Source of the DNA: Felixounavirus LF82P2
Sequence record: OZ035741.1
Reading direction: 5' to 3' (one strand)
DNA: 64,000 nt
The translations under genes and the position numbers were made by a program. How positions within the stretch are numbered: the first letter of the stretch is position 1; each line of letters begins with the position of its first letter. A model generated the notes under the pieces. That model was not told the DNA's origin and ran no database searches. It saw nothing but the letters and a program-made list of their open reading frames with translations. Shown one piece after another: positions 2,026 to 56,147 of the stretch.

Positions 2026-2925
2026 TTACTTACCTACTGACAGAGGTGCTTCAATCTTCCCTGCATGTTGGTAGTTGTTAATGCCACCAATAAAATCACT
2101 TGCAGTAAGATGTTTTAAGTCACTTAAAGTGTTAAGTGGTACACCAATCTCAAAAGTAGGTGCATGGAACTCTTCGTTGTTCATCAGTTCATAAACCTGC
2201 TTCATATGATTCTGATAAATCTGAGTATCCCCAAAGACACCTATCAAGTATCGTGGAGTGTACCCAGTCATCTTACAAAGAACTTCCAGAATAAAACCAT
2301 AAGACGCAATATTAAACGGAAGTCCTAAAAAGGTGTCTACAGAACGTTGATACCATTGTAAGTCAACTTCACCTTCGTTAGTGATATAAATCTGAAACAG
2401 AACATGACAAGGTGCTAAAGCCATCGAGTTGGCTGCAATATCTGCTGCATTCCAAGCATTAACAAGCATGTAACGGTCTGTGATATCACCTTTCATCTTC
2501 GTTACTAAGGTCTCTAACTGGTCTACAACACAACCATTATGACCTTCAAAGTTTCTCCACTGAACCCCGTAGATTCTCCCACCTGCATCCTCTAACCAGT
2601 CTTGCTCAGAAGAATAGTTAGAGCTTAACCAGCGTTTAAAGTCATCTGACCAGATAGTCCAGCGTTCTCCATCATTTTCACCCCAAGTACGGTAACGGAG
2701 TTCGCCAAGTTTATTCTCACCATTCAGGAACCATAAAGCTTCCCCAATAACTTGCCGTGTAAACACCTGTTTAGATGTTAAGAGTGGAAAACCAGTACGC
2801 ATATCAAAGCGAAACTGTGGTGGAGCAAATGCAGAGATAACATCTCCAGTTCTTGTAGTACGCAGTTCACCAACGGATAAAACATGGTTCAGTATATTTT
2901 TGTAACTTGAATCTGCTTGTGACAT
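2026..2925 (-). CDS. thyA: thymidylate synthase
   Basis: 299 aa; ThyA motifs including active-site PCH (ALAPCHVLFQ) and conserved N-terminal FPLLTSK region; ORF appears uninterrupted. Confidence 0.85.
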   Translation of the reverse strand: MSQADSSYKNILNHVLSVGELRTTRTGDVISAFAPPQFRFDMRTGFPLLTSKQVFTRQVIGEALWFLNGENKLGELRYRTWGENDGERWTIWSDDFKRWLSSNYSSEQDWLEDAGGRIYGVQWRNFEGHNGCVVDQLETLVTKMKGDITDRYMLVNAWNAADIAANSMALAPCHVLFQIYITNEGEVDLQWYQRSVDTFLGLPFNIASYGFILEVLCKMTGYTPRYLIGVFGDTQIYQNHMKQVYELMNNEEFHAPTFEIGVPLNTLSDLKHLTASDFIGGINNYQHAGKIEAPLSVGK

Positions 2926-2926
2926 A

Positions 2927-3472
2927 TCAAAAGTGTCCTTTTACTTGTGGAACATAGATTTCAAAGGTTGCTTTACCATCTACTGATGGTTTTGACTGAA
3001 TCTTAGCGAAAATTTGACGGTCATGCAACTTATCAAAGAAATTCTCAAAAGGTAGATGCACAGTTGCCTCTTCAGTAACTTCATGGAAAACTGTATGGAA
3101 CACTACATCAGCATACGGTAAAGCACTGACAAGAATACCTACACCACCAATTACGAAGACGTCTTCTTCAATATTACTATCAAGATACTTTAAAAATGCT
3201 CCAAAAGAATCTTGATGAGCCTTAGCAAACATAACATCATCTTTGGTGAAGTCCATACCATAATAAGGCACAGAATTTGTTAAGATGAGGTTTGTACGTT
3301 CTGGTAAAGGTTTATTGCCCAGAGTCTTAAAAGTCTCGTTACCCATAACTACTAAGTTGTCTTTAGTAAGTCTCTTAAACTCTTGCATATCCTGTTTATG
3401 TCTAGGCCACGGCATACCAGTCGGTGTACCAAATTCACCGTTTTCACCACTTGCAAATATTAGCTTAATCAT
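2927..3472 (-). CDS. frd: dihydrofolate reductase
   Basis: 181 aa; DHFR-like N-terminus (IKLIFA..GxxGxxxxMPW) and VVMGxxTF motif; adjacent to thyA. Confidence 0.8.
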   Translation of the reverse strand: MIKLIFASGENGEFGTPTGMPWPRHKQDMQEFKRLTKDNLVVMGNETFKTLGNKPLPERTNLILTNSVPYYGMDFTKDDVMFAKAHQDSFGAFLKYLDSNIEEDVFVIGGVGILVSALPYADVVFHTVFHEVTEEATVHLPFENFFDKLHDRQIFAKIQSKPSVDGKATFEIYVPQVKGHF

Positions 3473-3729
3473 TTTGTAAACCCTTTCTTAATGAACCAGT
3501 TGATGACACTCTTCACAGCTTTATTGCTATGGTAGATTAAGTGTGGTGTAGGTTGGTATGAACCATAAGCCCAGAAAGCAATGATTTCATTACACCCTGT
3601 ACACCTTGTACTCTCTTCAGCGATATGACCATTGACTATTTCACTTACCTCACCTTGCAAGTCTGTACATCCACAATGTGGACATCGGATAGGTGTTCCA
3701 TCAGACTCATAGCAGTGTTCAATTTTCAT
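3469..3729 (-). CDS. hypothetical zinc-ribbon protein
   Basis: CPHCGC ... CTGCN cysteine pairs. Confidence 0.35.
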   Translation of the reverse strand: MKIEHCYESDGTPIRCPHCGCTDLQGEVSEIVNGHIAEESTRCTGCNEIIAFWAYGSYQPTPHLIYHSNKAVKSVINWFIKKGFTK

Positions 3730-4245
3730 CTATTTAACCTCAAAAACTGGCTCAAGAACCAATATAAAGTCTACACAGTCATCTTCTTCATCCAGAATAC
3801 CATCAAAGTTCTTAGGAACGAAGTCGAAGAGGCTCATAACAAAACAGTCAGAAGTGACCCTGATAGTTCCTCCAATGTTCTCTACAGTTAACACTGTACG
3901 ACTTTCTTTTACCTCCCTCAGAAGATTACCCACAAAGTCATCTAAGAAGTACTTCATCAGTGACTTAAACCCTTTAGGATAATCTGTACCAGAGTATGTT
4001 TCAATCTGAGGCACAAGCTTAACATTTATACTAGTCTTTGTTAAGAACGTGTTAGAGAACATACTATCAGGTAACTTACAAACAGTCTTCCCAGTACCTT
4101 CATGTTCAATCTCAACAAAACCAGCTTCGTCGCCACATGTAACTATTTTAAAAGATGCTTCATTCTCATACTGTGAAGCCATAAACTTTTTAAGCATCTC
4201 TTTAAGGAAATCTGCATGAGCATCTTGTAAGTAGATATCAATCAT
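3730..4245 (-). CDS. hypothetical protein
   Basis: 171 aa ORF in minus-strand operon. Confidence 0.4.
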   Translation of the reverse strand: MIDIYLQDAHADFLKEMLKKFMASQYENEASFKIVTCGDEAGFVEIEHEGTGKTVCKLPDSMFSNTFLTKTSINVKLVPQIETYSGTDYPKGFKSLMKYFLDDFVGNLLREVKESRTVLTVENIGGTIRVTSDCFVMSLFDFVPKNFDGILDEEDDCVDFILVLEPVFEVK

Positions 4246-4258
4246 AGTTAATCACCTA

Positions 4259-4618
4259 TTATGGGAACAAACACTTAATGTCATCGTTTTTGAAAACGAA
4301 ACTTGTGTAGTTATGACCATCAACATCCAACCAAACAGCCTGAACATCTACACCATCAAGATTCTGGTAAAGCTCTTTGATGAAGTGGTCTTTCACAAGC
4401 TGACTGCTAGTTGTTTCCAGCTTAATGTTCGAGATTGCTGAACCTACAGCCATATAGCCCATGACACGTTTCTTCTCAGTATGCTTAATCTTACCATCTT
4501 TGTAAGCCATAATGAGATTGGAGAGAATCTTCACACCATAATACTTTTCAAGGTGAGTGGGTACGCCATAAAAGCCTAATGCGAAGTTTTCAGAGTGGAT
4601 AATGTTTTCACGTTTCAT
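4259..4618 (-). CDS. hypothetical protein
   Basis: 119 aa ORF in minus-strand operon. Confidence 0.4.
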   Translation of the reverse strand: MKRENIIHSENFALGFYGVPTHLEKYYGVKILSNLIMAYKDGKIKHTEKKRVMGYMAVGSAISNIKLETTSSQLVKDHFIKELYQNLDGVDVQAVWLDVDGHNYTSFVFKNDDIKCLFP

Positions 4619-4619
4619 A

Positions 4620-4949
4620 TTAATCTGCCAACCTTAAATTAAAATTAACACCAAATTTTTCACATACTTCCAACATATACTCAAGGGAGACGTTACCAGT
4701 GAGATGGATTATGTTGGATACACGAGCCTGAGAGATACCACAAATTTTAGCAACTTGCTCTTGAGAAAGACCTCTGGATTTAATCTCTCTCTTAAAACGA
4801 TGTGCAACGAAATCTCTCATTTCATCTACATCCATTGGACAAATATAACTCTCCATTTCAGCCTCTCTATCAGCCTCCCAATCATCTTGTGGAGCATAAG
4901 GGTCAAAAATCTCATTCATCTTTCTTCTTCCGTTTGCGTGAAGTGTCAA
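4620..4949 (-). CDS. helix-turn-helix DNA-binding protein (XRE-like)
   Basis: LSQEQVAKICGISQARVSNI helix-turn-helix-like segment. Confidence 0.45.
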   Translation of the reverse strand: MTLHANGRRKMNEIFDPYAPQDDWEADREAEMESYICPMDVDEMRDFVAHRFKREIKSRGLSQEQVAKICGISQARVSNIIHLTGNVSLEYMLEVCEKFGVNFNLRLAD

Positions 4950-5124
4950 TCAATGAATCTATGTTTGTAGCCCTAACCTTTTCACGTTCATCGTTAAGAT
5001 AATCGTCAAGAGCCTTTTCAATCTGTGAATCATCTTGACAGATGACTGTAAAGACTGTAAATCCGTCTGTATCGTCAATTATCTTACCATAACCGCTTCT
5101 GGGATGTAACTTTTTAAGAGCCAT
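4912..5124 (-). CDS. hypothetical protein
   Basis: 70 aa ORF; basic C-terminus. Confidence 0.3.
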   Translation of the reverse strand: MALKKLHPRSGYGKIIDDTDGFTVFTVICQDDSQIEKALDDYLNDEREKVRATNIDSLIDTSRKRKKKDE

Positions 5125-5125
5125 A

Positions 5126-5509
5126 TCAAATACCTGTGCAGCTTCTGTTTTCTAAGAAATACTCAACACCATACATAGCTTTTTGCATCAAATCTTCTTT
5201 AAACTGGATACGGTGGTTGAGCATAGTTTGTACATCAATATCGTCATGGTGTTTATCTTTAATATTTGCAGATTGCAGGAAATACTCTGCAAGAACACGA
5301 TATTGATAGTCAGTTACCTTATCAGTCATCTCTGTCAAAGACTCTTCAGAGATTGGTTTAAGTAGCTCACCTTTAGATAGAGCAACACCTTTAACAATCT
5401 GGCAAGTGTCTTCTGGGACACCTGATAAGTCCACATTGGGAAGTTCTGTTGCATTGACTGGTAAATTCATTGCCATAACCATTGCAGCAGCTAATAAAAT
5501 CTTTTTCAT
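5126..5509 (-). CDS. hypothetical secreted protein
   Basis: N-terminal signal-peptide-like MKKILLAAAMVMAMNLPVNA. Confidence 0.45.
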   Translation of the reverse strand: MKKILLAAAMVMAMNLPVNATELPNVDLSGVPEDTCQIVKGVALSKGELLKPISEESLTEMTDKVTDYQYRVLAEYFLQSANIKDKHHDDIDVQTMLNHRIQFKEDLMQKAMYGVEYFLENRSCTGI

Positions 5510-5599
5510 AATGACCTCAAAGTTATATTAAATTTTGTATTACGTTGAGTATAAAAATAAGCTATAACACCTGACTTGTCAACAGATTTTATAGCTTAT

Positions 5600-5900
5600 T
5601 TGGCAGATTTTTTATAAGGCTACTGCCATCCTTCCATACCTTACCTTACCACACCTAACCATACCTAACCAAACTACACCATACAATACCTTGTTAAAAG
5701 ACCCTTTTAAAGACATTTTAAAAAGGTAAGTCTCATTTTAATGTAGCTGAGACTAACTACCCTTACCTAACCTTACATCACCTTACAAAGCCAAACCTCA
5801 CAATACCGAACCATACCTAGCATCACTTAAAAACCCTCTTAAAAGACTCTTAAATGATGCTGGTGAGTACCCGTTGGTTTATGCTGCTCAGTATACTCAC
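5600..5900. repeat. two tandem ~140 bp units: C/A-rich ACCTAACC-type short repeats, then TTAAAAG-rich AT segment, then a hairpin
   Basis: Unit 1 about 5600-5760 (hairpin AGTCTCA..TGAGACT); unit 2 about 5760-5900 (hairpin GGTGAGTA..TACTCACC); no ORF. Confidence 0.5.
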
Positions 5901-5913
5901 CAAATTTTCTATG

Positions 5914-6102
5914 TCAACAACTTTCTAATAAAGTTTTATGAAGATTTTGCTTAACGACCCGCCTCACATGCCTGTGTTCTTTCTTAATAAAGAGTGACCT
6001 CTTCTTGTCAGAGCGCCTATTCTTGTAAGTATTACTAGGATACTTATCATGAACCGGACAACAGCTACCCGGATTTGTAAACTTGATAATCTCTCTTTTC
6101 AC
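5914..6102 (-). CDS. hypothetical small basic protein
   Basis: 62 aa ORF, Arg/Lys-rich; weak. Confidence 0.25.
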   Translation of the reverse strand: MKREIIKFTNPGSCCPVHDKYPSNTYKNRRSDKKRSLFIKKEHRHVRRVVKQNLHKTLLESC

Positions 6103-7202
6103 TATTCATAATCCCTAATAACTAGCCCAACAGGGAACTGTAAAGAACCCTTACGAGTCATCTTCTGGAACTGAACCGTTAAAGGCTTCCCGATAAACTC
6201 TTCAGGATGCTCAGCAAGATACTGTTTCTTCTCGTGTGTAGTTTTCCATGAAACATCTACAAAGACGTTAGGAAGAGTCTCTACAACGAACTTACCATGA
6301 CCACGCTTATCGGTCTTTACACCAGTCACTTTAAACTCTTCAGTGTGCATCTTCTTGTGCTTAATCAAGAAGTATGAACGGTGACAACACTCATAGAAGG
6401 AGTCTTCAGAGATTGAACGGTACATTGCACCTTCAAACTTAGCTTCAACCCACTTATCATGAGCTTCATCAAACTCTTCCCAAGAATTTACACGGATAGT
6501 CTGTACAGGAACAACTCTACAGGTATCCCCAAGCTCAACAATAGGTGAGTTATCAATAACTTCACGACGCTCAGGCCAAGATTTTGAATTGTCACAGATA
6601 TCATACCAGTAGAATTTAAGAAGGTGACGGTCTGGATTGTCAGCATTCTTAATCATAGATACAATATCTTCTAAGTCCCAACCATGAGCATAAATCTCTC
6701 CGTCAAAGTCTTCAACTTGCGGATGTAATTTAAGCAACAAAAGCAAATCTGGGATTAGTTCTGTTGGAACGTTGTAAACAGTATTCTCACGAGAATAAGC
6801 TGTGAAACTGACTGCATCAGCATCTCTTGAAATTCTACAACGGACACCATCAAGTTTTGGTTGAGCATCAGCAGGGAACTTCAGATACTTTGCATGACTA
6901 ACCTTTGCAGCATCATGAGCAAGCTGTACACCTACCTTCTCAGTATTCTGTGCAGACTCTTTTGTGTAAGCATAACCTTTGCGGTCAACTTGCTTTTTAT
7001 ACTTAGCAGCAACTTCAAAGAGGGCTTGCTGTTCAGCGTTACGCTCATTCTTTTTACCGATGTTTTTAGGCTCTGCTGTATACTCTTCAAACATCATCTT
7101 GCCATTTTCTTTACCGTAGGTTGTAATAACTTTGTCACCTACAGCAACGCATGACCAGACGTTGAAGGAACCGTCTTTATTTTGTTTGTACAGAATTGTC
7201 AT
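6102..7202 (-). CDS. ATP-dependent DNA ligase
   Basis: 366 aa; KxDG adenylation motif (PKLDGVRC) and nucleotidyltransferase-like layout. Confidence 0.7.
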   Translation of the reverse strand: MTILYKQNKDGSFNVWSCVAVGDKVITTYGKENGKMMFEEYTAEPKNIGKKNERNAEQQALFEVAAKYKKQVDRKGYAYTKESAQNTEKVGVQLAHDAAKVSHAKYLKFPADAQPKLDGVRCRISRDADAVSFTAYSRENTVYNVPTELIPDLLLLLKLHPQVEDFDGEIYAHGWDLEDIVSMIKNADNPDRHLLKFYWYDICDNSKSWPERREVIDNSPIVELGDTCRVVPVQTIRVNSWEEFDEAHDKWVEAKFEGAMYRSISEDSFYECCHRSYFLIKHKKMHTEEFKVTGVKTDKRGHGKFVVETLPNVFVDVSWKTTHEKKQYLAEHPEEFIGKPLTVQFQKMTRKGSLQFPVGLVIRDYE

Positions 7203-7504
7203 TTTCTCTTACCACCAATCTCTACGTCGATAACTTGAACATCGCCAGCAACATCAAACTTATGTATGATGCTTTCCACAGTATAAGTCCAACCATCAAT
7301 GCGAACCATCTCACCTTCTCGTGGAACTATTGGATTACGTTGAGCTACAGTTGTAGTGGAGTGAACAACATCATAACGATAGATATAGTTTACTAGGACT
7401 TCCATCGTGAAAACCTCACTCAATAACCGTAGTATGTGATTGTCCATTTTTGCCATAGCTGTAAGATGTTGTTGTTTGAGAGTTTGGACATCTGACAACA
7501 ACAA
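7199..7504 (-). CDS. hypothetical protein
   Basis: 101 aa ORF abutting ligase gene. Confidence 0.35.
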   Translation of the reverse strand: MLLSDVQTLKQQHLTAMAKMDNHILRLLSEVFTMEVLVNYIYRYDVVHSTTTVAQRNPIVPREGEMVRIDGWTYTVESIIHKFDVAGDVQVIDVEIGGKRK

Positions 7505-7676
7505 TATCTCTGCTTATAGCATCACCATGTAACTTGTATACTCTGCAATCTTGCATCTCTGGTGGGAGGCTATAAGAAGCATTTTTATCTTCATAAGAAG
7601 GGTTGCAGCCAGATAGAAAAATAACACCAAGCGCAATTACCACTTTCCACATAACACTACTCCTATTACTGTTCAC
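7416..7676 (-). CDS. hypothetical lipoprotein
   Basis: Signal peptide ending in lipobox-like LSGC. Confidence 0.4.
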   Translation of the reverse strand: MNSNRSSVMWKVVIALGVIFLSGCNPSYEDKNASYSLPPEMQDCRVYKLHGDAISRDIVVVRCPNSQTTTSYSYGKNGQSHTTVIE

Positions 7677-7908
7677 GATGTTCTACTTCTCTGTACGTTC
7701 GTCGATAGTATATAATAAGCTGTGCTAACTCGTTGCTTTTAACATCTGAACGTAGCAGTTGCCAATCAAAACCTTTACCGACTCTTCCATATAAACTAAA
7801 CAGTTTTACTTTGCGTTTCATTTTGGTATACCAATACTCAGAAGTCAATATTAATACGTTCGCCCTTAAGGACTCCAGTACGGTCTCTTGCAATCTTGCC
7901 GTCAACAA
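7666..7908 (-). CDS. hypothetical protein
   Basis: 80 aa ORF. Confidence 0.3.
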   Translation of the reverse strand: MLTARLQETVLESLRANVLILTSEYWYTKMKRKVKLFSLYGRVGKGFDWQLLRSDVKSNELAQLIIYYRRTYREVEHREQ

Positions 7909-8065
7909 TAAGGATATGTGCAGCCCTTAAAGAGTCACTATTAAAAGCTTTTACGAACTTACTAGGCATCACTACAATGGGCATCTCCTGAATCAACTCT
8001 GGAGTATAGCAATTGTCGTGAAGTTGCTGAATAACGTCTGCAAGTGTCATTTTTGATGTCTCCAA
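7838..8065 (-). CDS. hypothetical protein
   Basis: 75 aa ORF. Confidence 0.3.
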   Translation of the reverse strand: METSKMTLADVIQQLHDNCYTPELIQEMPIVVMPSKFVKAFNSDSLRAAHILIVDGKIARDRTGVLKGERINIDF

Positions 8066-8256
8066 TACTCAATGTCAATAAGTTCTTGTGCAATGCTTTT
8101 AAGGTTACCTTTCAAGAAAACCTTCTCAGAACCTGAAAGAGATGAATTGTCAATTAACCTGTTCATTCTCTCAAACAACTTCTGCTTACGATTTTTGATA
8201 GTCTCCTTTGAAGCACCTTTCATCATTGCTGCATGGGTTCTTCCACGATGGCTCAT
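8047..8256 (-). CDS. hypothetical protein
   Basis: 69 aa ORF. Confidence 0.3.
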   Translation of the reverse strand: MSHRGRTHAAMMKGASKETIKNRKQKLFERMNRLIDNSSLSGSEKVFLKGNLKSIAQELIDIEYWRHQK

Positions 8257-8307
8257 AAGCCCTCCTATATAAGATACAGTATAAGGTACTCTTCCATGAG
8301 CACCTTG

Positions 8308-8871
8308 TCAACTTAGTTTTGCAAACTCTCCGTGGAGTTTAATAGCAGCTTCACAGTAAGCTTTATGGGCTTCTTCTGGTGTGTCAAACATACCAAGATG
8401 ATAGTTTTTACCTTGTAAACGTATCATTGCTCGAAACCTTTTACTTATCTTCTGTACACCTTTTGGCAACCCAGATGGGGACTTTCTTGACCGATTGCAA
8501 GAGTTTTGTGAAGCTGTACAAACCCTTAAATTCAAGTACCTATTGTCCCAACCGTCCCCATTCTTATGGTCAACCTGTAAGTTTTTATCAGGCAGGTATC
8601 CATCCACATATAGTATTGCTAGACGGTTAGCTTGGTAGCCTTTACCATCAAGCAATAACTGAACAGACTTGTGACCATCTGTGTTTATCCTATAATTTCC
8701 TGCCTTTTTACCTCCAAAACGAGAGTTGAAGTTCTTATTGCCTCGTGATACCGGCTCTCTAAACTTCCAAGTAAAGACCCCTGTTTCGGGGTCGTAGTCC
8801 AATAGCTCCTTAAGACGAATTTCTGTAATCATTTCAACACCATCAATGTACTTCCAACCAGCTCTTACCAA
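8308..8871 (-). CDS. HNH homing endonuclease (AP2-like DNA-binding domain)
   Basis: GVFTW motif, HKNGDGWDNRYLNLRVCTASQN HNH core; paralogous to ORF 18423-18947. Confidence 0.65.
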   Translation of the reverse strand: MVRAGWKYIDGVEMITEIRLKELLDYDPETGVFTWKFREPVSRGNKNFNSRFGGKKAGNYRINTDGHKSVQLLLDGKGYQANRLAILYVDGYLPDKNLQVDHKNGDGWDNRYLNLRVCTASQNSCNRSRKSPSGLPKGVQKISKRFRAMIRLQGKNYHLGMFDTPEEAHKAYCEAAIKLHGEFAKLS

Positions 8872-11572
8872 CCTTACCTGTGCCAGTTACAAGCGTCTCA
8901 CTCTTCAAACCTAAATTCTTAGATGCCTGACCATACATCCAGTCAGTTATGGCTTTCACTTCTTGAGTCATACTTTCTGGACATTCCCAACTGTTTTCAT
9001 CGTGGTATGCCAGCAAAAGCCTAGCACCAATTGCTGGTTTTCGTCCATTTAATTTTGTCAACCCTTCTTCACATGCTCTTCTACAAGCAAGGTTAATTGC
9101 CTCATTTTGAATCTGAGCCTCCGAACCCATGAGCAAATAATTCAATAACTTATGTGGAGATTTACACCACAACCAAGCTCCAGCAACCTTTACGAAGCCA
9201 CCTTTAGAGATTGCAGCAGTCTTACCAAACACCTCTTCAAGTGCCTTTTTAGTTGCTTTGTAGTCAGCTTCCAAGTCATCTAGCAGCTTCTTAATTTTAG
9301 GCAAACGAATAAAGTAAGTCTGTTTAGTCAGTGCACCTTCCTGAGTAGTTGCAGCTTTAATCGTCTTAGCAAACTTCTCATCACCTGCACCGAACAGCAG
9401 TGCATAGATACCATTCTTAGCTTTCTTACGGCCTTTGCTAATCTCATGGAGGAGGTTCTCATCCTGAGTAGCTCGACAAGTCAAGATGTCCTGCTCATCA
9501 TTCAAGCTAAAGTAAATACTGTTCAGTGTATGTGCATCAGTCCCTGAATAGACAACGTACAGGTCATTTTCAGAGTCATAGCGAAGGTACTTATCAATCT
9601 CTGGGTTGAGGTACTCATCAAAATGTTTGCAGTAATAGCGTCCATCTTCTTGACGAATGAACTCAATTTCTTCTTTACCTTGCGTTACCGCTTTGGTGAA
9701 GTCCTTATCACCCATAAAGTTACAAAGCAGAACTAGCTGGGCTGAGTTCATGTCTACAGAGACAACGTTAGTACCTTCCTCACAAATCCACACTGCCCTC
9801 ATTGGTTCCCCATAGACAGCAGCACCAGACGGTACGTTTACAATACCATATTGTGTCATACGTCCAGTTGAAGTACCGAACACCATTGCACCAGCACTAA
9901 GGCGACCATCAGGACGAATCTGGTTCAACCAACCTTTTTCATCATCCTTTGAGTTCTCAATAGTTCTGCGTCGGTGCATCAAAGTATAGTACTTAGCAAT
10001 CTTCTGTCCAAGTTCACCTTCAATCGTATCATAAGATGATTCAGTAAGTTTTGGTGAAGTACGGATTAAGCAAGGCTCAAGCAAATCTGTGTATTTCTTC
10101 ACAGACCAGTTATGCTCGATGTACTGGACGCCTTCATGCTCGACATAACTCAATCCACACCGTTCTACCATCTCCTGCCACTTAGGATGTTTTGTAATCA
10201 TCTTTTTATTGTCTTTGAAACGACAAACTTTGACAGGGCGACCGTCTGAGTCTTTCTTGTAGTTCCAGTCATCTGGAATCCAACCAACTGATTTCAAGTA
10301 GTCTTTTACAACTGCTACCTGAGTCATACGAGAAACTTCAAACTCAATTGGTGTATATGGTGCATCAATCAATCCTGTGTAGCGACTTGACTCAAGTTCA
10401 AAGTGGTTAACAACGTGGCTGTTATAGTACTTCACAGTTTTGACTGTTTTTACTGGCTTCCAGTCTTTGCATTTCTTACCAATCTTTGCGTTCAACTCAT
10501 TGCAAATTGCACGAGCATCCTTCATTGCTACAAAGCCTTCCTTGTACTCTTCACCAGTTACAGAGTTGGTTGGTGTATAGCAATTTCTCTTTTCAATGTT
10601 AAAAATCTTTGTAGTTGGCTTACCAAATGGTTTGATTTCGTATGTCTGCATCTCACCGTTACGCACCTGTTGACGGTACTTCGTCTTAGGATACTTGGTG
10701 ATTCTCTTCAACCCATCTGCATGACCAAATGTTTCAACATACTCATTCCAAGCCTTTGCAAACTCTTCACCAGTTACTTTACCTTTGGTCTTAATAGTTG
10801 GAGGTAGATGTGGTTCAACCTCTGAAGCAAGCTCATTAGTCAACTTGTCAAGTTCCTTTACATGGAACTCCATAAGCTCTTTATCAGCTTTCCAACCATT
10901 GATAGCTTGCTGGCTCATCCAGAAAGATGTTTCTTTAGCTCGCATGTAGGTTTCATAAGTATCTATGCCACACTTCTTAAGCTTGAGATACTCATTATCA
11001 AGTGCCCGTTTAGTTTTGGCGTTAATACGGATATCTTCTACAACACGAGTGAAGATTTCTGCATTCCACACACCCCAATGTTCAATCTCTGGTTTACGAA
11101 CACCAACACGAGCACCCCATGCAGCCAAACCATGAGCACCTTTATAACCCTTTGGAGTTGGTCTATCCATCCACTGAACACGAGACTGGATAAGAGAATC
11201 CTGAAAGAAATTACTCCACGGTTTACACTTTGGGTTATCAAAGTTCCATAAATCAGGTGCAATGTGATTGAAAACCCACCAGTCATAACCGAGACCGTTA
11301 TGGATGCAAAGACGTTTTGCCTTTAACGCAAACTCAATACCTTCACGTAAGCCACCCTTGATGTACTTGGTGTACTTGTGACCGAGAATAGGTTCATCTG
11401 TAAAGACCCATACAGGTGGCTCTTCATCGTCAGATTTATAGTCTGCGAAAGCCATTACGTGCACTTTAGTGAACTCAAGGAGTAAACCATCAGTTTCTGT
11501 ATCACCAACTAAATGTAAGTTTTTAAAATCTACGTTTTCCATTTTTACTCCCTCTAAAATCATTAACCTCAT
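8843..11572 (-). CDS. DNA polymerase, family A, with 3'-5' exonuclease domain
   Basis: 909 aa; Exo I DTETDGL; Pol A motif B-like RKKAKNGIYALLFG and motif C YHDE. Confidence 0.8.
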   Translation of the reverse strand: MRLMILEGVKMENVDFKNLHLVGDTETDGLLLEFTKVHVMAFADYKSDDEEPPVWVFTDEPILGHKYTKYIKGGLREGIEFALKAKRLCIHNGLGYDWWVFNHIAPDLWNFDNPKCKPWSNFFQDSLIQSRVQWMDRPTPKGYKGAHGLAAWGARVGVRKPEIEHWGVWNAEIFTRVVEDIRINAKTKRALDNEYLKLKKCGIDTYETYMRAKETSFWMSQQAINGWKADKELMEFHVKELDKLTNELASEVEPHLPPTIKTKGKVTGEEFAKAWNEYVETFGHADGLKRITKYPKTKYRQQVRNGEMQTYEIKPFGKPTTKIFNIEKRNCYTPTNSVTGEEYKEGFVAMKDARAICNELNAKIGKKCKDWKPVKTVKTVKYYNSHVVNHFELESSRYTGLIDAPYTPIEFEVSRMTQVAVVKDYLKSVGWIPDDWNYKKDSDGRPVKVCRFKDNKKMITKHPKWQEMVERCGLSYVEHEGVQYIEHNWSVKKYTDLLEPCLIRTSPKLTESSYDTIEGELGQKIAKYYTLMHRRRTIENSKDDEKGWLNQIRPDGRLSAGAMVFGTSTGRMTQYGIVNVPSGAAVYGEPMRAVWICEEGTNVVSVDMNSAQLVLLCNFMGDKDFTKAVTQGKEEIEFIRQEDGRYYCKHFDEYLNPEIDKYLRYDSENDLYVVYSGTDAHTLNSIYFSLNDEQDILTCRATQDENLLHEISKGRKKAKNGIYALLFGAGDEKFAKTIKAATTQEGALTKQTYFIRLPKIKKLLDDLEADYKATKKALEEVFGKTAAISKGGFVKVAGAWLWCKSPHKLLNYLLMGSEAQIQNEAINLACRRACEEGLTKLNGRKPAIGARLLLAYHDENSWECPESMTQEVKAITDWMYGQASKNLGLKSETLVTGTGKVGKSWLEVH

Positions 11573-11612
11573 ACATTACTGCAAAAAATTATAAAAAGCA
11601 AGTTGACAATGC

Positions 11613-11642
11613 ACTTGACAAGGTGTTAATCTTTGCGAAGTG
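11613..11642 (+). promoter_or_regulatory. candidate promoter with conserved ACTTGACAAGGTG box
   Basis: 13-mer ACTTGACAAGGTG (contains TTGACA) in divergent intergenic region; same 13-mer at 27958 and 56007. Confidence 0.4.
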
Positions 11643-11799
11643 GGTTTTTACTTAAAAGGTTACTTAACAGTTTAACTATACAGATACTTTAAAACTCTTA
11701 AAAGATTATTTAATAGCTTTTAAAAAGCTTTAAAGTATAACGTATAGAATACGTTAAGATAAAAGATTAAAACTTAATAGTTACTTAAAAGAGGCTTAC

Positions 11800-21123: not shown

Positions 21124-23358
21124 ATGATTAAGACAATTAAAAAATCAAATGGTACAGTAGTAAGCTTTGACCCAGAAAGACTGAATAAGTGGGCATCATG
21201 GGCAGATAAACGTGGAATTATCTGGTCAGAAGTCACTATGGAAGCTATGAAACGTGTCTATGAGGGTTGCACTACAAAAGAGATGCACCAAGCCATGATT
21301 GATGTTTGTGTTGATAAACAAACTCAAGAGTACTCAGATATGGCTGGGCGGCTACTTCTAGGGATTATCTACAAAGAAGCCTTTGGAGGCTTTACTAAGG
21401 TTCCTACGCTGATTACCTTCGTTAAAAATATGGAGAGAGCAGGACTTTGGGAGAAGATGGACTATTCACAGGAAGAGCTTGAATACCTGCAAGGTTACAT
21501 CGTACACTCAAAAGATATCTCTTACGGCTATGCGGTCTTGAAACAGTTCAGAGACAAGTACGGTATCCGTGATATTAAAACGGGAAGACTGTTTGAGTCA
21601 CCACAATTTATGTTTATGGGTATGGCTATGAAAGCCTTTGAGAAGCAACCAAAGCACCGTAGACTGCAAGATGTTATCAAGCTGTACACTTACCTATCTG
21701 ACCTGAAGATTAACGCTCCTACACCTTATTTAAACGGTTTAAGAGCAACTAAATCAGGCTATGCGTCATGCTGTTTGATTAAGGCAAATGATACTGCTGA
21801 GTCACTTGGTATTGCTGCAAAGGTTGCTTATGATATGACCACAAAGCAAGCTGGTATTGGTATGCTGATGGAGACTCGAACTATTGGTGATGGTATCCGT
21901 CAAAATACTATTGAGCACATGGGTAAGCTACCTTATTACAAGCTTGTACGTTCATCTGTAGAGGCAAACAAACAGAAGAGTCGTGGTGGTTCAGCTAATA
22001 ACTTCTACACTGCTCTAGACCCGCAGATTGAAGATTTACTGCGTTTGAAGCACCCTACAACGGTTCCTTCTAAACGTATTAATGAGATGGACTACTCATT
22101 CGGCACAAACGATTATTTCTGGCAGTGTGTCCAGTATGATACAGATTGGTTGCTATTCTCTTACAAAGATGCACCAAAACTCTATGACATGTTCTACACA
22201 GCATCTGCTGATGAGTTTGCTATGGCAGTTGGTCACGCAGTACATTCAGGTGTTAAACACAGACGGGTAAAGGCTCGTGAAATTGCTAAACTGTTTATTC
22301 AGCAGCGTTATGCTACAGGTCGTGTGTATCCATTCTTCACTAACAATGCAAACACACATACACCATTCAAAGAACCATTGAAGATGTCAAATCTTTGTAT
22401 GGAAATTGTATTGCCAGTGTATGGTTTTGAGAAAGAGACAGACCTTTACAGAGACGATGCTGTGAAAGAGGATGGTGAGGTGGCTCTTTGCTTCCTAGCT
22501 AGTTTGGTTGCAGGGAGAATTTCAGAAGATGAATACGCTGACGTTGCTTATTATGCTCTTGCAATGGTTGACTCCGTTATTGACCTTATGGATTATCCGT
22601 ATCCGTCGATGCGTAACCATGTTCAGAAGCGTCGTTCTGTTGGGATTGGCCTTACAAATGTGGCTCATTACCTTGCGAAGAACTACGTGAACTACTCTTC
22701 ACGAGCAGGTAAAACGAAGCTTCATGAACTTGCAGAGATGCACTCTTACTATCTACATGAAGCCTCTCTGAGACTTGCTAAAGAGCGTGGAGTTCCAGAG
22801 TACATGAAGTTCACTAAGTATCCTGAAGGCTGGGTTCCTCCAAAGACAGCCAACAAGAAGATTGATGAGAAGCATGATGCAAAACTAAGATATGATTGGG
22901 ATGACTTAGCACAACGTATCAAAGAAAATGGTGGAATCCGAAACTCTGTATTAGAAGCTTACATGCCTAATGAGAGTTCTTCACTAGCAACTAATACGAC
23001 AAACGGCTTGTACCCAATTCGTGACTTTATTTTAACTAAAAAGTCTGCAACTGGTAACGTACTGTTTATTGTTCCAGATTATGAAGAGTTGAAGTATGTA
23101 TATGAAATTGCTTGGGGTATTGACACCTTTGACCTGATTGATTGTTATGCAATTGTTCAAAAGTTCACTGGTCAAGCTATCTCTTCAGACTTCTATGTTG
23201 ACTATGCAAAGTCTAAGAAGGTATCATTGGCTCAAGCTTTGAAGTACATGATTTATGCCAACTCTGTAGGTATGAAAACCATGTACTACCTTAACAGTCG
23301 CATTGGTGTAGGTAAATCTGCACTGCAAGATGCTTATTGCGAGGGATGTGGTGTTTAG
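21124..23358 (+). CDS. nrdA: ribonucleotide reductase class I large subunit
   Basis: 744 aa; ATP-cone-like N-terminus, C-terminal CxxC tail (YCEGCGV). Confidence 0.8.
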   Translation: MIKTIKKSNGTVVSFDPERLNKWASWADKRGIIWSEVTMEAMKRVYEGCTTKEMHQAMIDVCVDKQTQEYSDMAGRLLLGIIYKEAFGGFTKVPTLITFVKNMERAGLWEKMDYSQEELEYLQGYIVHSKDISYGYAVLKQFRDKYGIRDIKTGRLFESPQFMFMGMAMKAFEKQPKHRRLQDVIKLYTYLSDLKINAPTPYLNGLRATKSGYASCCLIKANDTAESLGIAAKVAYDMTTKQAGIGMLMETRTIGDGIRQNTIEHMGKLPYYKLVRSSVEANKQKSRGGSANNFYTALDPQIEDLLRLKHPTTVPSKRINEMDYSFGTNDYFWQCVQYDTDWLLFSYKDAPKLYDMFYTASADEFAMAVGHAVHSGVKHRRVKAREIAKLFIQQRYATGRVYPFFTNNANTHTPFKEPLKMSNLCMEIVLPVYGFEKETDLYRDDAVKEDGEVALCFLASLVAGRISEDEYADVAYYALAMVDSVIDLMDYPYPSMRNHVQKRRSVGIGLTNVAHYLAKNYVNYSSRAGKTKLHELAEMHSYYLHEASLRLAKERGVPEYMKFTKYPEGWVPPKTANKKIDEKHDAKLRYDWDDLAQRIKENGGIRNSVLEAYMPNESSSLATNTTNGLYPIRDFILTKKSATGNVLFIVPDYEELKYVYEIAWGIDTFDLIDCYAIVQKFTGQAISSDFYVDYAKSKKVSLAQALKYMIYANSVGMKTMYYLNSRIGVGKSALQDAYCEGCGV

Positions 23359-25230: not shown

Positions 25231-27375
25231 ATGAACAAAGTACAGATTATTAAAAAGAATGGCTCACTTGAAGAACCTGATATCAAAAAAGTTTTAGCAG
25301 CAGTCACAAAGTCAGCTAACAGAGTTGGTTATAAAGAGCTTCCACCAGATGTTACTCAAGCTCTTGAGTCAGCATTTATGAGGATTCTGGTAAAGTCCAC
25401 TAAACAGAATAATTTGCTAATTTCGGTAAATGATATTCACAGTATTGTTGAGGGTGCTTTGGCAGAAGTCAATCACGAGATTTATGAGTCTTACTCAACA
25501 TATAGAAATTACCGTAAAGAGGTTGCTCAAAATTGGGATGAACTCTACCAGAAGACCAAAGATACACTCTTCTTAGGCGACCGAGAAAACGCTAATTTTG
25601 ACAGCAGTTTAATTTCTACAAAAGGCTCAATTATTCGTGGTTACCTGACTAAAGAAATCTTTAAACAGTACCATTTAACACCAGAGGAACTTGAAGCCAT
25701 TGAAAAAGGATTTATCTATATCCATGATTTAAGAGACCTAATTTTTGGTGGTATCAACTGTTGCCTGTTTGACATTGGTAAAGTCCTGAAAGGTGGCTTT
25801 GAAATGTCTGGCATCGAATATTGTGAACCGAAGTCTGTGCTGTCAGCCTTACAGGTTATTGGTGATGTAGTTCTTTCAGCAACTGCACAGCAATTTGGTG
25901 GCTTTACTTTAGCAGAGATTGATAAGGTACTTGTACCGTATGCTAAGAAGTCTCTACGCTATCATGCTGAGAAAGCAGCATCTTATGGTATTCCTAAAGA
26001 ACATTACCATAATTATGTCATGGAGCAGCTACAGATTGAATTAACTCAAGGTTTTCAGTCACTTGAAATGAAACTGAACACTGTACCTTGCAGCCGTGGT
26101 GATTTCGCATTCACAACTTTAACATTTGGGTTGCTCGACTCAGATATGTCTAATGAAGACAACCGACTACAATACATGATTGCAAGTACTCTCCTAGATG
26201 TTCGTATGAATGGACAAGGTAAGAGCAAGAAGCCTGTTGTATTTCCTAAACTGGTTTATATTTATGACCAGAAGAGACATGATGAAAATATCTGTCAAGG
26301 TCACCTGTACAGTAAAGCTATTGAGTGTTGCTCTAAAGCAATGTATCCAGATTTCTTAAGTGTATCTGGTCATGGTGCTGTAGCAGAGGCTTTTGAGCGT
26401 TCTGGCAAGGTTATTTCGCCGATGGGTTGCCGAGCGTTCTTATCTCCGTATCTTAACGAGAATGGGGAAGAGTTCTACGTTGGTCGTGCTAACATTGGTG
26501 CTGTATCTTTGAACTTACCAATGATTTACCAGTATTCTAAAGAGAATGGTTTAGATTTCTGGAAAGAGCTTGATAAGTACCTAGAAATGATTCGCAGCTT
26601 CCACAAGAAACGCTACGAAATGATTGCTAATATGCCAGCAAGTTCTAACCCTCTTGCATTCACGCAAGGTGGTCTGTACAAAGGGACTAAGAAGCCTACT
26701 GATAAGGTTGGTTGGGATATCGTGAAATCTTTCACAGCCTCTTTTGGGGTTACTGCTCTTGATGAGTTGTCTGTTCTTGCTGAGGGTAAACGACTCCATG
26801 AAGTTGGAAGCTGTAGTTTTGCATATGATGTTCTGGCATACATTAACATGAAAACTGAAGAGTTTAAGAACGAAGATGGCTTCTTGTATGCGGTATATGG
26901 CACTCCAGCAGAGTCATTGTGTGGAACTCAGCTAAAACAGTTCAGAGATATGTTTGGTGTTATTAAAGGCGTTTCTGACAAGGAATACTTTACAAACAGT
27001 TTCCATATGAATGTTGCAGCAAACATCTCACCATTTGAGAAGCAGGACTTAGAAGAGCCATTCTTCCATATCTGTAGAGGTGGCAGAATCCAGTATGTAA
27101 GGGTAGCTAACCCAGAAAACTTACCAGCACTTAAAAGTTGTATTACCAGAGGGATGTTGAAGGGTTTTTATCAGGGACTTAACTTTGACTTAGCAATCTG
27201 TGAACATTGTGGTAACAGACCAAAGGCTGATGTTGAAGAATGTGAGGTTTGTCATTCACACGATATCTCTGTGATTAACAGGGTGTGCGGGTACTTGTCA
27301 TTCACAAAAATTAAAGGTCAGTCTCGAATGAATGACGCTAAGATGGCAGAAATTAAGGATAGGGTTTCTATGTAG
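25231..27375 (+). CDS. nrdD: anaerobic ribonucleoside-triphosphate reductase
   Basis: 714 aa; C-terminal glycyl-radical motif RVCGYL and Cys-rich zinc site (CEHCG..CEVCH). Confidence 0.8.
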   Translation: MNKVQIIKKNGSLEEPDIKKVLAAVTKSANRVGYKELPPDVTQALESAFMRILVKSTKQNNLLISVNDIHSIVEGALAEVNHEIYESYSTYRNYRKEVAQNWDELYQKTKDTLFLGDRENANFDSSLISTKGSIIRGYLTKEIFKQYHLTPEELEAIEKGFIYIHDLRDLIFGGINCCLFDIGKVLKGGFEMSGIEYCEPKSVLSALQVIGDVVLSATAQQFGGFTLAEIDKVLVPYAKKSLRYHAEKAASYGIPKEHYHNYVMEQLQIELTQGFQSLEMKLNTVPCSRGDFAFTTLTFGLLDSDMSNEDNRLQYMIASTLLDVRMNGQGKSKKPVVFPKLVYIYDQKRHDENICQGHLYSKAIECCSKAMYPDFLSVSGHGAVAEAFERSGKVISPMGCRAFLSPYLNENGEEFYVGRANIGAVSLNLPMIYQYSKENGLDFWKELDKYLEMIRSFHKKRYEMIANMPASSNPLAFTQGGLYKGTKKPTDKVGWDIVKSFTASFGVTALDELSVLAEGKRLHEVGSCSFAYDVLAYINMKTEEFKNEDGFLYAVYGTPAESLCGTQLKQFRDMFGVIKGVSDKEYFTNSFHMNVAANISPFEKQDLEEPFFHICRGGRIQYVRVANPENLPALKSCITRGMLKGFYQGLNFDLAICEHCGNRPKADVEECEVCHSHDISVINRVCGYLSFTKIKGQSRMNDAKMAEIKDRVSM

Positions 27376-27382
27376 AATACAA

Positions 27383-27946
27383 ATGAATTACGAACTAATA
27401 TATAATGCAATTATTAAAAAGGCACATTCTGAAAGGGGTGTGCCTCTCACATACTACAAATGTCAAGGTAAGGGTTATGAAAGACACCATATCATACCAG
27501 TATGTCTAGGTGGCGATAAAATTAGTGGAGATAACATTGCTTTACTTACACCTAGAGAGCATTATATAGCTCATAAATTACTGGTTAAGATGTATCCAAA
27601 CAATCATAAGTTATGGTTTGCATGGAGCAGGTTAGCTCATGATGGCCTAGATAGGAAAATATCATCCAGAGACTATGAAAAGGTAAGGGCTTTAAACTCG
27701 AAAGCTCTATCGATTGTGAATAAAGGTAGGGTTTTCACTGAAGAGCATCGAAGACGATTAGGAGAAGTTCAAATAGGTAATACAAAGTCAAAAGGTTGTA
27801 AAAGGTCTATGGAAACAAGGAAGAAGATGTCAGAAGCCGGAAAAAAGCCAAAGAAAAAGAAAACTTGCCCGCATTGTGGCATGACTGGTGGTGCTGGTAA
27901 CATGACTCGATATCATTTTGACAATTGTAAGAAAAAAAAAAAATAA
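27383..27946 (+). CDS. HNH endonuclease
   Basis: ERHHIIPVCLGGDKISGDNIALLTPREHYIAH HNH core; start placed at ATG 27383 just after nrdD stop. Confidence 0.6.
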   Translation: MNYELIYNAIIKKAHSERGVPLTYYKCQGKGYERHHIIPVCLGGDKISGDNIALLTPREHYIAHKLLVKMYPNNHKLWFAWSRLAHDGLDRKISSRDYEKVRALNSKALSIVNKGRVFTEEHRRRLGEVQIGNTKSKGCKRSMETRKKMSEAGKKPKKKKTCPHCGMTGGAGNMTRYHFDNCKKKKK

Positions 27947-27957: not shown

Positions 27958-27990
27958 ACTTGACAAGGTGGTGTGGGTCTTGATAGGCTT
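27958..27990 (+). promoter_or_regulatory. candidate promoter with conserved ACTTGACAAGGTG box
   Basis: Same 13-mer as at 11613 and 56007. Confidence 0.4.
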
Positions 27991-37502: not shown

Positions 37503-38612
37503 ATGACTACTAAAACTAAAGCACAGATTGACGCAGAAATTTACAAACTGGTTAAAGAAGGTAAGCTGACTAAAACAGCTATTGCACAGAGATTTAATAC
37601 TTCAACCCGTTCAGTTGGTCGTGCTGTAGAGCGTCATGAAGCAACTTTAAAAGGGGATAAGAAGGCAACTTCTACACCAGCTACGAAGACTTTGAAGCAA
37701 GTTGCTAAGACATTTAAAAAGAAAGCTGACAAACCAGTTGAAAAGGTCGTTAAAGATGCTGTACAGAAAGCTCCAGTAAATAAACTGCATGAAGCTATGC
37801 AGAAAGATGACAAAATTGAGTACATGATTACTGGCGACTCTGTAATTATGACTTATGGTTCAGAATCTGAAATTGTTGAGTCTACTCATCCGAACTATCA
37901 AGAGATTGTAGTTCATGTTGTGAAAGGTGAGTTCAAGAAAGCCTTTGAACTGATGAATATTCGTAAGTCTATCGAAAACTTCACTCAGGGTGCTATCACA
38001 ATCAAAGGTGACAAGCTATTCTACGGTGCTGTTGAGATGCGTTCTACTCTGGTTGACCGTATTCTTCACATGATGAAGACTGGAGATAAAGGCTTTGAAC
38101 GCCTTGTGATGTTCTTCGAAAAACTGATGGAAAACCCATCTAAAGACTCTGTAGAACAACTTTGGGGCTTTGTATCTCACCTTGATGTTGAAATTGATGA
38201 AGAAGGCTACATCATTGGTTGGAAGAAAGTATCTACTCGTGAAGGTAAGCTGGTTGACTCCCACACCTACAAAGTTCCTAACGATTTGGGTAACATTGTA
38301 GAGATGCCACGTTGGATGGTTGATAATAACCGTAACGTGACTTGCTCTCAAGGTCTTCATGTTGGTGCTTGGGATTATGTTCGTAGCTTCTCAGGTGATA
38401 CAATCCTGAAAGTTCGTGTCCACCCACGAGATGTTGTATCTGTTCCAACTGATTACAATGATATGAAAATGCGTTCATCACGTTATGAAGTTGCAGCTAT
38501 CGTTGATAGCCAGCGTAATGTTCTGAAAGCATGGGATGGCAAGACTGAAGCTCTACATGTTATCGTTGGTACTGCTGGCGAACTTATTTCTCAGCGTAAA
38601 CGTGAAATCTAA
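37503..38612 (+). CDS. rIIB-like protein (putative)
   Basis: 369 aa immediately downstream of rIIA-like gene; assignment by synteny only. Confidence 0.3.
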   Translation: MTTKTKAQIDAEIYKLVKEGKLTKTAIAQRFNTSTRSVGRAVERHEATLKGDKKATSTPATKTLKQVAKTFKKKADKPVEKVVKDAVQKAPVNKLHEAMQKDDKIEYMITGDSVIMTYGSESEIVESTHPNYQEIVVHVVKGEFKKAFELMNIRKSIENFTQGAITIKGDKLFYGAVEMRSTLVDRILHMMKTGDKGFERLVMFFEKLMENPSKDSVEQLWGFVSHLDVEIDEEGYIIGWKKVSTREGKLVDSHTYKVPNDLGNIVEMPRWMVDNNRNVTCSQGLHVGAWDYVRSFSGDTILKVRVHPRDVVSVPTDYNDMKMRSSRYEVAAIVDSQRNVLKAWDGKTEALHVIVGTAGELISQRKREI

Positions 38613-43179: not shown

Positions 43180-43208
43180 GACTCTTTGAACGTGGTTATC
43201 TAATATTT
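43180..43208 (+). promoter_or_regulatory. sigma70-like promoter (TTGACT-17-TAATAT)
   Basis: Immediately upstream of conserved leader hairpin. Confidence 0.45.
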
Positions 43209-43210
43209 AC

Positions 43211-43269
43211 ATCAACGGGGAGGGAATGACCTTCCCCACTAAATAAAATCCTAAACTGGAGATTCAAAA
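43211..43269 (+). promoter_or_regulatory. conserved leader module type A (hairpin + RBS)
   Basis: CATCAACGGGGAGGGAATGACCTTCCCCACTAAATAAA..CCTAAACTGGAGATTCAAAAATG; near-identical copies end at 44259, 45525, 45855. Confidence 0.6.
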
Positions 43270-43664: not shown

Positions 43665-43666
43665 AA

Positions 43667-44158: not shown

Positions 44159-44166
44159 AAAATTTT

Positions 44167-45136: not shown

Positions 45137-45167
45137 AAACCTATGCAATCACCTTATAAACACTAAT

Positions 45168-45189: not shown

Positions 45190-45202
45190 GGGGGCTTAAA
45201 TC

Positions 45203-45436: not shown

Positions 45437-45460
45437 ACAAGCCTGATAAAAGTCTGTAAA

Positions 45461-55919: not shown

Positions 55920-56006
55920 GGCAGACCTACAGCTTTAAGTAAGATGGTACAGTAATCCATACAACAAGTCAAGAACTATTGCAAGTTAAAAAAGTTGTTG
56001 ACAAAG

Positions 56007-56040
56007 TACTTGACAAGGTGTAGGCTTATAAATACTTAGA
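56007..56040 (+). promoter_or_regulatory. candidate promoter with conserved ACTTGACAAGGTG box
   Basis: Third copy of 13-mer; in divergent intergenic region before 56148 gene. Confidence 0.4.
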
Positions 56041-56147
56041 AGATTACTTAAAAGGTTCCTCTAAAAAGGCTATTTAAACAGATATCTTTCTGGATATCTA
56101 TCTTTTATCTTAAAAGCCTTTTAAGAGGTCTTATAAGAGGCATACCA

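Follow-up and report, generated by a model that had tools for sequence, protein, structure and literature searches.

A repeated 13-mer with a −35 hexamer in Felixounavirus LF82P2 as the probable −35 module of a small family of sigma-70 promoters

Genomic setting

The window, i.e. the whole 64,000-nt stretch of Felixounavirus LF82P2 DNA analysed here (record OZ035741.1), has the gene order of phage Felix O1, and the 7.3-kb stretch around the first copy of the motif described below is 96 to 98 % identical to many Felixounavirus genomes (277 records, including LF82P1, XTG1 and Alf5). Its genes fall into the following blocks.

2026-11572, − strand: gene block from td to DNA polymerase
11800-46104, + strand: gene block with the gene-97 homolog, primase/helicase, nrdAB, nrdD, nadV, rIIAB and small early genes
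46105-47748: ORF-free gap of 1.6 kb between converging + and − strand blocks
47749-55919, − strand: gene block homologous to genes 24-40
From 56148, + strand: gene block beginning with the gene-41 (DUF5681) and gene-42 homologs, with a tRNA cluster

Occurrence of the 13-mer

The 13-mer ACTTGACAAGGTG is present in three exact copies, all on the + strand, at 11613-11625 (site 1), 27958-27970 (site 2) and 56008-56020 (site 3), against a chance expectation of 0.02 copies, and three copies were obtained in 0 of 100 shuffles. An earlier note made from the sequence had reported an identical TTGACA-containing 13-mer in three copies, and the window search and shuffles bear this out; its positions 11613 and 27958 are right and its third, 56007, is off by one. 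All three copies are intergenic, stand where + strand units begin and are co-oriented with downstream + strand genes, as had been claimed, and no likely gene contains any of them. Site 1 is flanked by DNA polymerase (8843-11572, − strand) and the ORF97 homolog (11800, + strand), site 2 follows a homing-endonuclease-like ORF (27332-27946) and is followed by a gene for a small membrane protein, whose ATG is probably at 28019, and site 3 is between 55737-55919 (− strand) and the ORF41 homolog (56148, + strand); the two copies said to lie in divergent intergenic regions are those of sites 1 and 3. The motif is not equally frequent in coding sequence, one of the findings that the note had named as refuting it; the number of exact copies there is 0.

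Three further copies were found when one mismatch was allowed, at 2402 (+), 10841 (−) and 8301 (−). The first two fall within genes. The third lies directly after the stop codon of an HNH gene and about 45 nt upstream of the ORF94 ATG (− strand), and because of this placement behind a stop codon and upstream of a − strand gene it is counted as a fourth site. The 11-mer TTGACAAGGTG has four copies in the window, each co-oriented with its downstream gene. The Felix O1 counterparts are at 63542 and 79297 (both exact), 21525 (ending in A) and 60280 on the − strand (the fourth copy), and the Felix O1 structural module contains no copy of the motif. A scan of IMG/VR for TTGACAANNNNNTTGACAA gave at least 120 single hits in unrelated contigs, and is uninformative since chance predicts such hits for 14 specified bases.

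The 204-aa homing-endonuclease-like ORF before site 2 matches NUMOD3, and this genome and some relatives carry it as an insertion that separates nrdD from the site-2 promoter. Where it is absent, as in Felix O1 and most relatives, the nrdD stop codon is directly followed by the 13-mer of site 2, and the junction TATGTAAA is identical with and without the insertion.

Predicted promoter architecture

The promoter elements assigned at the four sites are as follows.

11592..11608, + strand: A-tract and upstream −35 hexamer TAAAAAGCAAGTTGACA, probable functional −35 of site 1
11613..11625, + strand: 13-mer copy 1, second (downstream) TTGACA of the gene-97 promoter, in the spacer
11624..11632, + strand: extended −10 TGtTAATCT of site 1; predicted start about 11638-11640
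27958..27970, + strand: 13-mer copy 2, its TTGACA (27960-27965) itself the −35; internal promoter directly after a stop codon
27981..27989, + strand: extended −10 TGaTAGGCT of site 2, 18 bp from the −35; predicted start about 27996
55987..56003, + strand: A-tract and upstream −35 hexamer TAAAAAAGTTGTTGACA, probable functional −35 of site 3
56008..56020, + strand: 13-mer copy 3, second TTGACA of the gene-41 promoter, abutting the −10
56021..56026, + strand: −10 TAGGCT of site 3, 17 bp from the upstream hexamer; predicted start about 56032-56034
8283..8313, − strand: fourth copy AGTTGACAAGGTG with one mismatch (8313 to 8301), TTGACA-17-TACCTT

All start sites are predictions, as no transcription start-site mapping or RNA-seq was found in the literature for any Felixounavirus.

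Hexamers matching TTGACA at 6/6 positions are located at 11603, 11615, 27960, 55998, 56010 and 8306 (−). At sites 1 and 3 a second TTGACAA, preceded by AAAAAG, stands 12 bp upstream of the hexamer of the 13-mer, and the two sites have in common a 35-nt repeat spanning both hexamers (family D13). When a −10 with A-11 and T-7 was sought at 16 to 19 bp, TAATCT was obtained at 18 bp (site 1, from 11603), TAGGCT at 18 bp (site 2), TAGGCT at 17 bp (site 3) and TACCTT at 17 bp (8288 to 8283 on the − strand, fourth copy), with only the upstream hexamers qualifying at sites 1 and 3. Two of these −10s carry a TGn extension (TGtTAATCT and TGaTAGGCT), that of site 1 being formed by the final TG of the 13-mer; at site 3 the TG is directly against the −10 hexamer and not at −15/−14. 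The −10 hexamers match TATAAT at only 3/6 positions and do not appear in a consensus scan.

The hexamer of the 13-mer itself has no TAnnnT at 15 to 19 bp at site 1, where AAGTGG and AGTGGG are found, and at site 3 only AATACT at a 15-bp spacer, which relatives do not keep as a −10. Two staggered promoters at each of these sites were therefore rejected, and the functional −35 of sites 1 and 3 is more probably the upstream TTGACA than the hexamer of the 13-mer. The motif does hold a consensus −35 hexamer, as the earlier note had it, but the partner of the −10 at sites 1 and 3 is the TTGACA 12 bp upstream; likewise TAGGCT is found where it was placed, downstream of sites 2 and 3, but relatives do not keep the TAAATA-like element of site 3.

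From weak −10s the same note had suggested an activator-dependent or phage-specific class; in such a middle-type class the 13-mer would act, much like a MotA box, as the box for a factor that redirects host polymerase. The hexamers are indeed non-consensus. Nevertheless the geometry does not support the suggestion, since every −10 lies 17 to 18 bp from a perfect TTGACA, which already explains recognition by host polymerase, and the 13-mer takes the −35 position at site 2 but borders on the −10 at the other two sites. Between the end of the 13-mer and the −10 there are 13 bp at site 2 and 11 bp at 8301 (−), but 1 bp at site 1 and none at site 3, and this lack of a fixed distance argues against an activator box. 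A consensus −35, a spacer of 17 to 18 bp, A-11/T-7 and a TGn extension suffice for strong initiation, so the weak −10 requires no activator. T7 A1 and other strong early promoters of phages likewise pair a −35 close to consensus with an imperfect −10.

Expression timing was also considered. The temporal control of Felix O1 was stated as unknown by Whichard et al. 2010 (PMC3185647), which leaves room for a dedicated factor, and the genes downstream of the three sites (41, 42, 97-99, 101 and 120) peak at 25 min in the RT-PCR of that study; the 25-min class comprises 59 genes, most of those tested, and so discriminates poorly and lends weak support. No RNA-polymerase-modifying genes were reported for Felix O1 (PMC3185647), and at the corresponding places distant relatives have ordinary promoters with one hexamer. 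An activator-dependent class is on this evidence highly unlikely.

Several other signals were tried and set aside. A TATAAT at 11593 to 11588 (−) was considered as a leftward −10 and lacks both a −35 and conservation, and the T4 late-promoter motif TATAAATA at 56027 is not conserved in relatives. In a comparison of consensus sequences by eye, none of sigma-32, sigma-E, sigma-54, sigma-S, CRP, FNR, IHF, PhoB/OmpR-type sites and the marbox fits.

The upstream TTGACAA of site 3 is palindromic and reads TTGTCA on the − strand. Two leftward promoters are candidates in this region.

55944..56004, − strand: candidate TTGTCA(56004)-18-TGcAATAGT(55980)
55944..56004, − strand: candidate TTGACT(55972)-17-TACCAT(55949)

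When the hexamers are read as TTGTCA, only the upstream one of site 3 gives a plausible leftward promoter, and site 1 gives none. The TGnAATAnT of the site-3 candidate is mostly kept in relatives. The second −10 is overlapped by a block, ACAGTAATC, common to Yersinia phage P778, and by manual alignment around this block TACCAT corresponds to TATCGT and TTGACT to TTGACA in P778.

Comparison with relatives

The three regions were aligned with their counterparts from IMG/VR relatives, the divergent ones being taken as Suspvirus and Mooglevirus. At 4-fold degenerate sites of the polymerase N-terminus the window is 51 to 63 % (about 58 %) identical to Mooglevirus/Suspvirus, so that unconstrained bases should have changed often. 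Both TTGACA hexamers of sites 1 and 3 are invariant across Felixounavirus, Mooglevirus and Suspvirus, and the 5 nt between them are hypervariable. In the −10, T-12, A-11 and T-7 are kept across genera and the middle positions and the n of TGn vary, as expected if selection acts on recognition positions and not on neighbouring bases.

At site 1, AAAAAGCAAGTTGACAA is invariant in all relatives, the next 3 to 4 bases are hypervariable, and these are followed by a conserved ACTTGACA(A/G)GGTG(T/G)TA(A/G)TCTT, the pattern expected of TGnTAnnnT, with the extended −10 reading TG(T/G)TA(A/G)TCT; the full 13-mer is unchanged in 4/5 Mooglevirus/Suspvirus sequences. The −10 of site 3 is TAGGCT, TAGCCT, TAAGTT or TAGTGT in relatives. 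At site 2, 24 distinct relatives all have an unchanged GTCTTGATAGGCTT, and only one of them departs from the ACATCACC that comes next; GTCTTGATAGGCTTACATCACC is nearly invariant, with three base differences in a single divergent relative, and TTGACA is almost invariant while AAGGTG drifts among close relatives.

More distant phages have a simpler layout. In P778 a single ACTTGACA with a −10 at 17 bp occupies all three orthologous positions (TGgTAATGT at site 1, TGtTAAAGT at site 3 and CAGAAT at site 2), and in two Erwinia phages of the genus Kolesnikvirus the site-1 position, the one compared there, holds TTGACA-17-TACATT. The −10 and start region (GAAGT) of site 1 align with their P778 counterparts, which identifies TAATCT as the orthologous −10. 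Placement of the 13-mer hexamer within the spacer is, in these alignments, confined to the Felixounavirus/Mooglevirus/Suspvirus clade, and there the spacer hexamer is under purifying selection, as it is conserved where 4-fold sites are only about 58 % identical. At the site-3 ortholog of P778 (L286, 9812-9830) divergent −35s stand back to back as a perfect palindrome, TGTCAAG-A-CTTGACA.

Conservation of this kind raises the possibility that TTGACAAGGTG (11- to 13-mer) is, besides or instead of a −35, the operator of a phage DNA-binding regulator, for which the XRE-type HTH protein gp85 (4620-4949, − strand) is a candidate. Bound there, the regulator would block the core promoter of each of the four sites, with coordinated shut-off or timing as the result. 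The motif is conserved beyond what polymerase needs as a full 13-mer at site 1, and more weakly at site 2, where AAGGTG drifts and TTGACA mostly does not, and at site 3. It overlaps the core promoter in varying registers (the −35, or the spacer by the −10), an arrangement that fits steric repression and not activation. The 9-bp stretch CTTGACAAG is a palindrome, but its outer pairs are broken in several relatives that keep TTGACA; moreover whole intergenic regions are conserved, so that conservation of the motif is not specific.

The candidate protein contains an HTH_3 domain, its match phrog_1373 carries the annotation transcriptional regulator, and the promoter of its gp87-86-85 operon carries a related TTGACAAGtcaGGTGTTA. 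By tblastn, gp85 was found in phages of Escherichia, Salmonella, Shigella and Citrobacter (260 records) and in no record from Erwinia or Yersinia phages, and the AAGGTG extension and double-hexamer layout are confined to the clade with gp85. This co-occurrence is a single evolutionary event shared by many genes, and gp85 is no more than a putative partner of the motif. A relationship of gp85 to sigma-70 region 4 was rejected, the sub-threshold Pfam Sigma70_r4 match being generic HTH similarity, and BLASTP of gp85 against E. coli sigma-70 region 4 gave no alignment. Overall, an operator function is rather unlikely.

Promoter signature and modules elsewhere in the window

The arrangement TTGACA-17/18-TAnnnT is the general promoter signature of this genome, being found for 11/20 intergenic and 6/72 coding TTGACA in the window, compared with 4.1 % of random positions. 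It is present at 11603, 27960, 55998 and 8306 (−) and absent for the 13-mer hexamers at 11615 and 56010. The longer form AAAAAG-N3/4-TTGACAA-17/18-TAnnnT also occurs at 16438, 37429, 56532, 58035, 58126, 59589 and 5577 (−).

Shorter modules recur as well. The 12-mer AAGTTGTTGACA is common to site 3 and the − strand promoter at 5917, GGTGTTA to site 1 and the − strand promoter at 5577, TAGGCTTA to sites 2 and 3, and AAAGTACTTKACAAGG to site 3 and the cassettes at 43.7 and 44.5 kb, and TTGACAAGG is among the modules reused by other promoters of the window. Such reuse points to cassette duplication or gene conversion as the source of the exact identity of the 13-mer copies.

A degenerate third member of the 35-nt double-hexamer repeat (77 % identity), TAAAAAGAAAGCTGACAAACCAGTTGAAAAGGTCG, lies inside rIIB at 37715-37749 and is probably chance or a relic. 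Repeated cassettes of promoter, hairpin and RBS precede small early genes (43201-45858 and 43665-44586), comprising a 72-nt unit in 4 copies with the hairpin GGGGAGGGAATGACCTTCCCC and an 80-nt unit in 2 copies, TTTACA-17-TAAAGT/TATCTT, with a GGGGCTTA...TAAGCCCC stem over the −10; orthologs of these repeats are listed in the Felix O1 paper (PMC3185647). The leader of the gp87-86-85 operon lies between the − strand promoters TTGACA-16-TATACT (5917) and TTGACA-17-TATTTT (5577), and contains at 5630-5700 and 5770-5820 (−) runs of GGTNN with a strict 5-nt period, e.g. GGTTA GGTAT GGTTA GGTGT GGTAA GGTAA GGTAT, which might be bound by an oligomeric RNA-binding protein or represent a G-quadruplex motif of two tetrads.

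Sigma-70 promoter model

The 13-mer is probably a conserved −35 module (ACTTGACA followed by AGGTG) of a small family of promoters used by host RNA polymerase with sigma-70 in this Felix O1-like phage. At 27958 and 8301 (−) the TTGACA of the 13-mer would be the −35, with a TAnnnT −10 at 18 or 17 bp, and these would be internal promoters right after the stop codon of the upstream gene. Sites 1 and 3 would head the two long rightward units, which begin with genes 97 and 41, with the upstream TTGACAA after AAAAAG as the working −35, 18 or 17 bp from the −10, and the 13-mer filling the spacer and touching the −10. The 13-mer may be identical between sites because promoter cassettes descend from one another or underwent gene conversion, with purifying selection acting as well. 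Contacts of polymerase in plain sigma-70 recognition do not explain the conserved TTGACAAGGTG in the spacer, 5 to 6 bp from the −10 at two promoters, and any role of that hexamer is an inference from its conservation. One explanation, which we regard as speculative and rather improbable, is that it is a dedicated putative operator that arose with an HTH regulator specific to the clade, be it gp85 or a different early protein, in the ancestor of Felixounavirus, Mooglevirus and Suspvirus, and that switches genes 97, 118, 41 and 94 together; if so, the regulator would recognise the −35 consensus itself, which would provide a mechanism for temporal control of the Felix O1 type.

The sites resemble E. 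coli sigma-70 extended −10 promoters in the perfect TTGACA, the 17- to 18-bp spacer, T-12/A-11/T-7, the A-rich tract upstream and, at two sites, TGn. They differ in that two of the phage promoters have a second conserved TTGACAA in the spacer, 5 to 6 bp from the −10, to which standard sigma-70 promoter anatomy gives no role. The feature is thus a promoter motif of known type, of which one instance (P41) had already been predicted, in an unusual tandem −35 layout.

Three other phage systems invite comparison. Phage T4 has early promoter cassettes, the promoter-early stem-loops (PeSL) of its hyperplastic regions, in which near-identical promoter modules are likewise reused within one phage genome. 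The promoter-plus-hairpin cassettes at 43.2-45.9 kb are PeSL-like, with a −35 context, AAAGTACTTTACAAGG, that matches site 3, whereas the 13-mer sites have no hairpin over the promoter and head large conserved operons instead of variable small genes. The CII sites of phage lambda are TTGC-N6-TTGC direct repeats straddling the −35 and so share with sites 1 and 3 direct repeats of a TTG-containing unit within the promoter, but in the present phage the period is 12 bp and not 10, the units are full −35 hexamers, and a CII-like gene was not identified. The middle promoters of T4, with a MotA box at −30, share with the present sites a sigma-70-type TAnnnT −10 combined with a conserved upstream box, and downstream genes that peak in mid-infection; they differ in that the box of the present sites is a perfect −35 and not TGCTTtA and has no fixed distance to the −10, and no MotA or AsiA equivalents have been reported.

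In Felix O1 itself a promoter P41, TTGACA(N15)TATAGG at 21515-21541, was predicted by Whichard et al. 2010 (PMC3185647). Site 3 is orthologous to this promoter, and in both the upstream hexamer serves as the −35; the −10 of P41, TATAGG, was placed two bases upstream of TAGGCT and is not conserved. The same study did not note the repeated 13-mer and found no sequence similar to P41 in the 96-97 region, a statement that needs correcting since site 1, in that region, carries the double-hexamer module.

Phages of the Felix O1 type are widely used in typing and biocontrol of Salmonella and E. coli, and their transcription programme is essentially unmapped. The analysis places four likely host-polymerase promoters, including the heads of both long rightward units, corrects the −10 of P41 and identifies a module homologous to it in the region of the polymerase and gene 97. 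How this phage group times its genes might be revealed by the additional conserved −35 hexamer of the spacer; if that hexamer is only promoter anatomy, the finding is ordinary.

Leaders and repeat arrays

The promoters at sites 1 and 3 are followed by long leaders.

11640..11799, + strand: leader of gene 97, highly conserved and AT-rich, with 4 CTTWWAAG boxes
56033..56147, + strand: leader of gene 41, highly conserved, with a possible long imperfect hairpin and 4 CTTWWAAG boxes

These leaders (115 to 160 nt) are AT-rich, more conserved than their coding flanks and capable of long hairpins (z-scores −2.3 and −1.8), and they share two 14-mers, TTACTTAAAAGGTT and, in inverted form, TTAAGATAAAAGAT. 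Intergenic DNA, 6.5 kb in all, holds 23 copies of the quasi-palindrome CTTWWAAG (2.0 expected), which forms clusters at 11651-11791 and 56047-56137 (4 each) and at 46224-47310 and is clustered in the same way in Felix O1 (L002, 12615-13487 and 21564-21654; L003, 19580-19720).

The leaders may act as RNA or as DNA; their strong conservation, AT-richness and sharing of 14-mers in both orientations would favour sites at the level of DNA. Sites 1 and 3 might be primarily replication-origin modules, in which a strong promoter and an AT-rich, hairpin-prone region would serve R-loop formation or transcriptional activation and to which the tandem hexamers would belong; this would be compatible with the sigma-70 promoter reading. 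Site 1 lies between the polymerase and primase/helicase gene blocks, and the repeat-rich 46.1-47.7 kb region has clusters of CTTWWAAG boxes as do both leaders. Against this, GC skew in the window simply tracks gene orientation, site 2 and the 8301 copy lack such a leader, and the 1.6-kb repeat array is a better origin candidate. An origin function for sites 1 and 3 is putative, and we consider it very unlikely as their primary role.

A leader element, (T)TACTTAA(A/C)AG, is present at 11648-11670 and 56044-56057, about 10 to 20 nt downstream of the predicted starts, and is conserved from Felixounavirus to P778 and the Erwinia phages (L283, 1060-1075, − strand; L286, 9868-9880). We take it to bear a loose resemblance to boxA. 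Its reverse complement, CTGTTAAG, is one box type of the 46-47.7 kb array.

An Rfam search of the whole window returned tRNAs only. The gene-42 homolog (56601-58016; DUF2828/DUF7788, annotated as 'RNA-binding protein') is just upstream of the tRNA cluster, and in a preprint on the related phage Bas63 the protein gp130 is described as Ro60-like and encoded directly upstream of the tRNA cluster, with the suggestion that some 'tRNAs' may be Y RNAs. From its position, Bas63 gp130 would be the homolog of the gene-42 product of the window.

The ORF-free gap at 46105-47748 contains 29 TGTTA boxes (yTGTTAr) on the + strand and 6 on the − strand, with a main spacing of 11 bp (for example ACTTGTTAGCA, ACTTGTTAGTC, CCTTGTTAAAT and CTCTGTTAAGA in succession), as well as CTATAAAG and CTTAAAAG repeats. 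It looks like an iteron or binding array, i.e. a putative origin or a set of sites for a response-regulator-like protein, and its TGTTA direct repeats at 11 bp recall what we take to be the pattern of ArcA sites.
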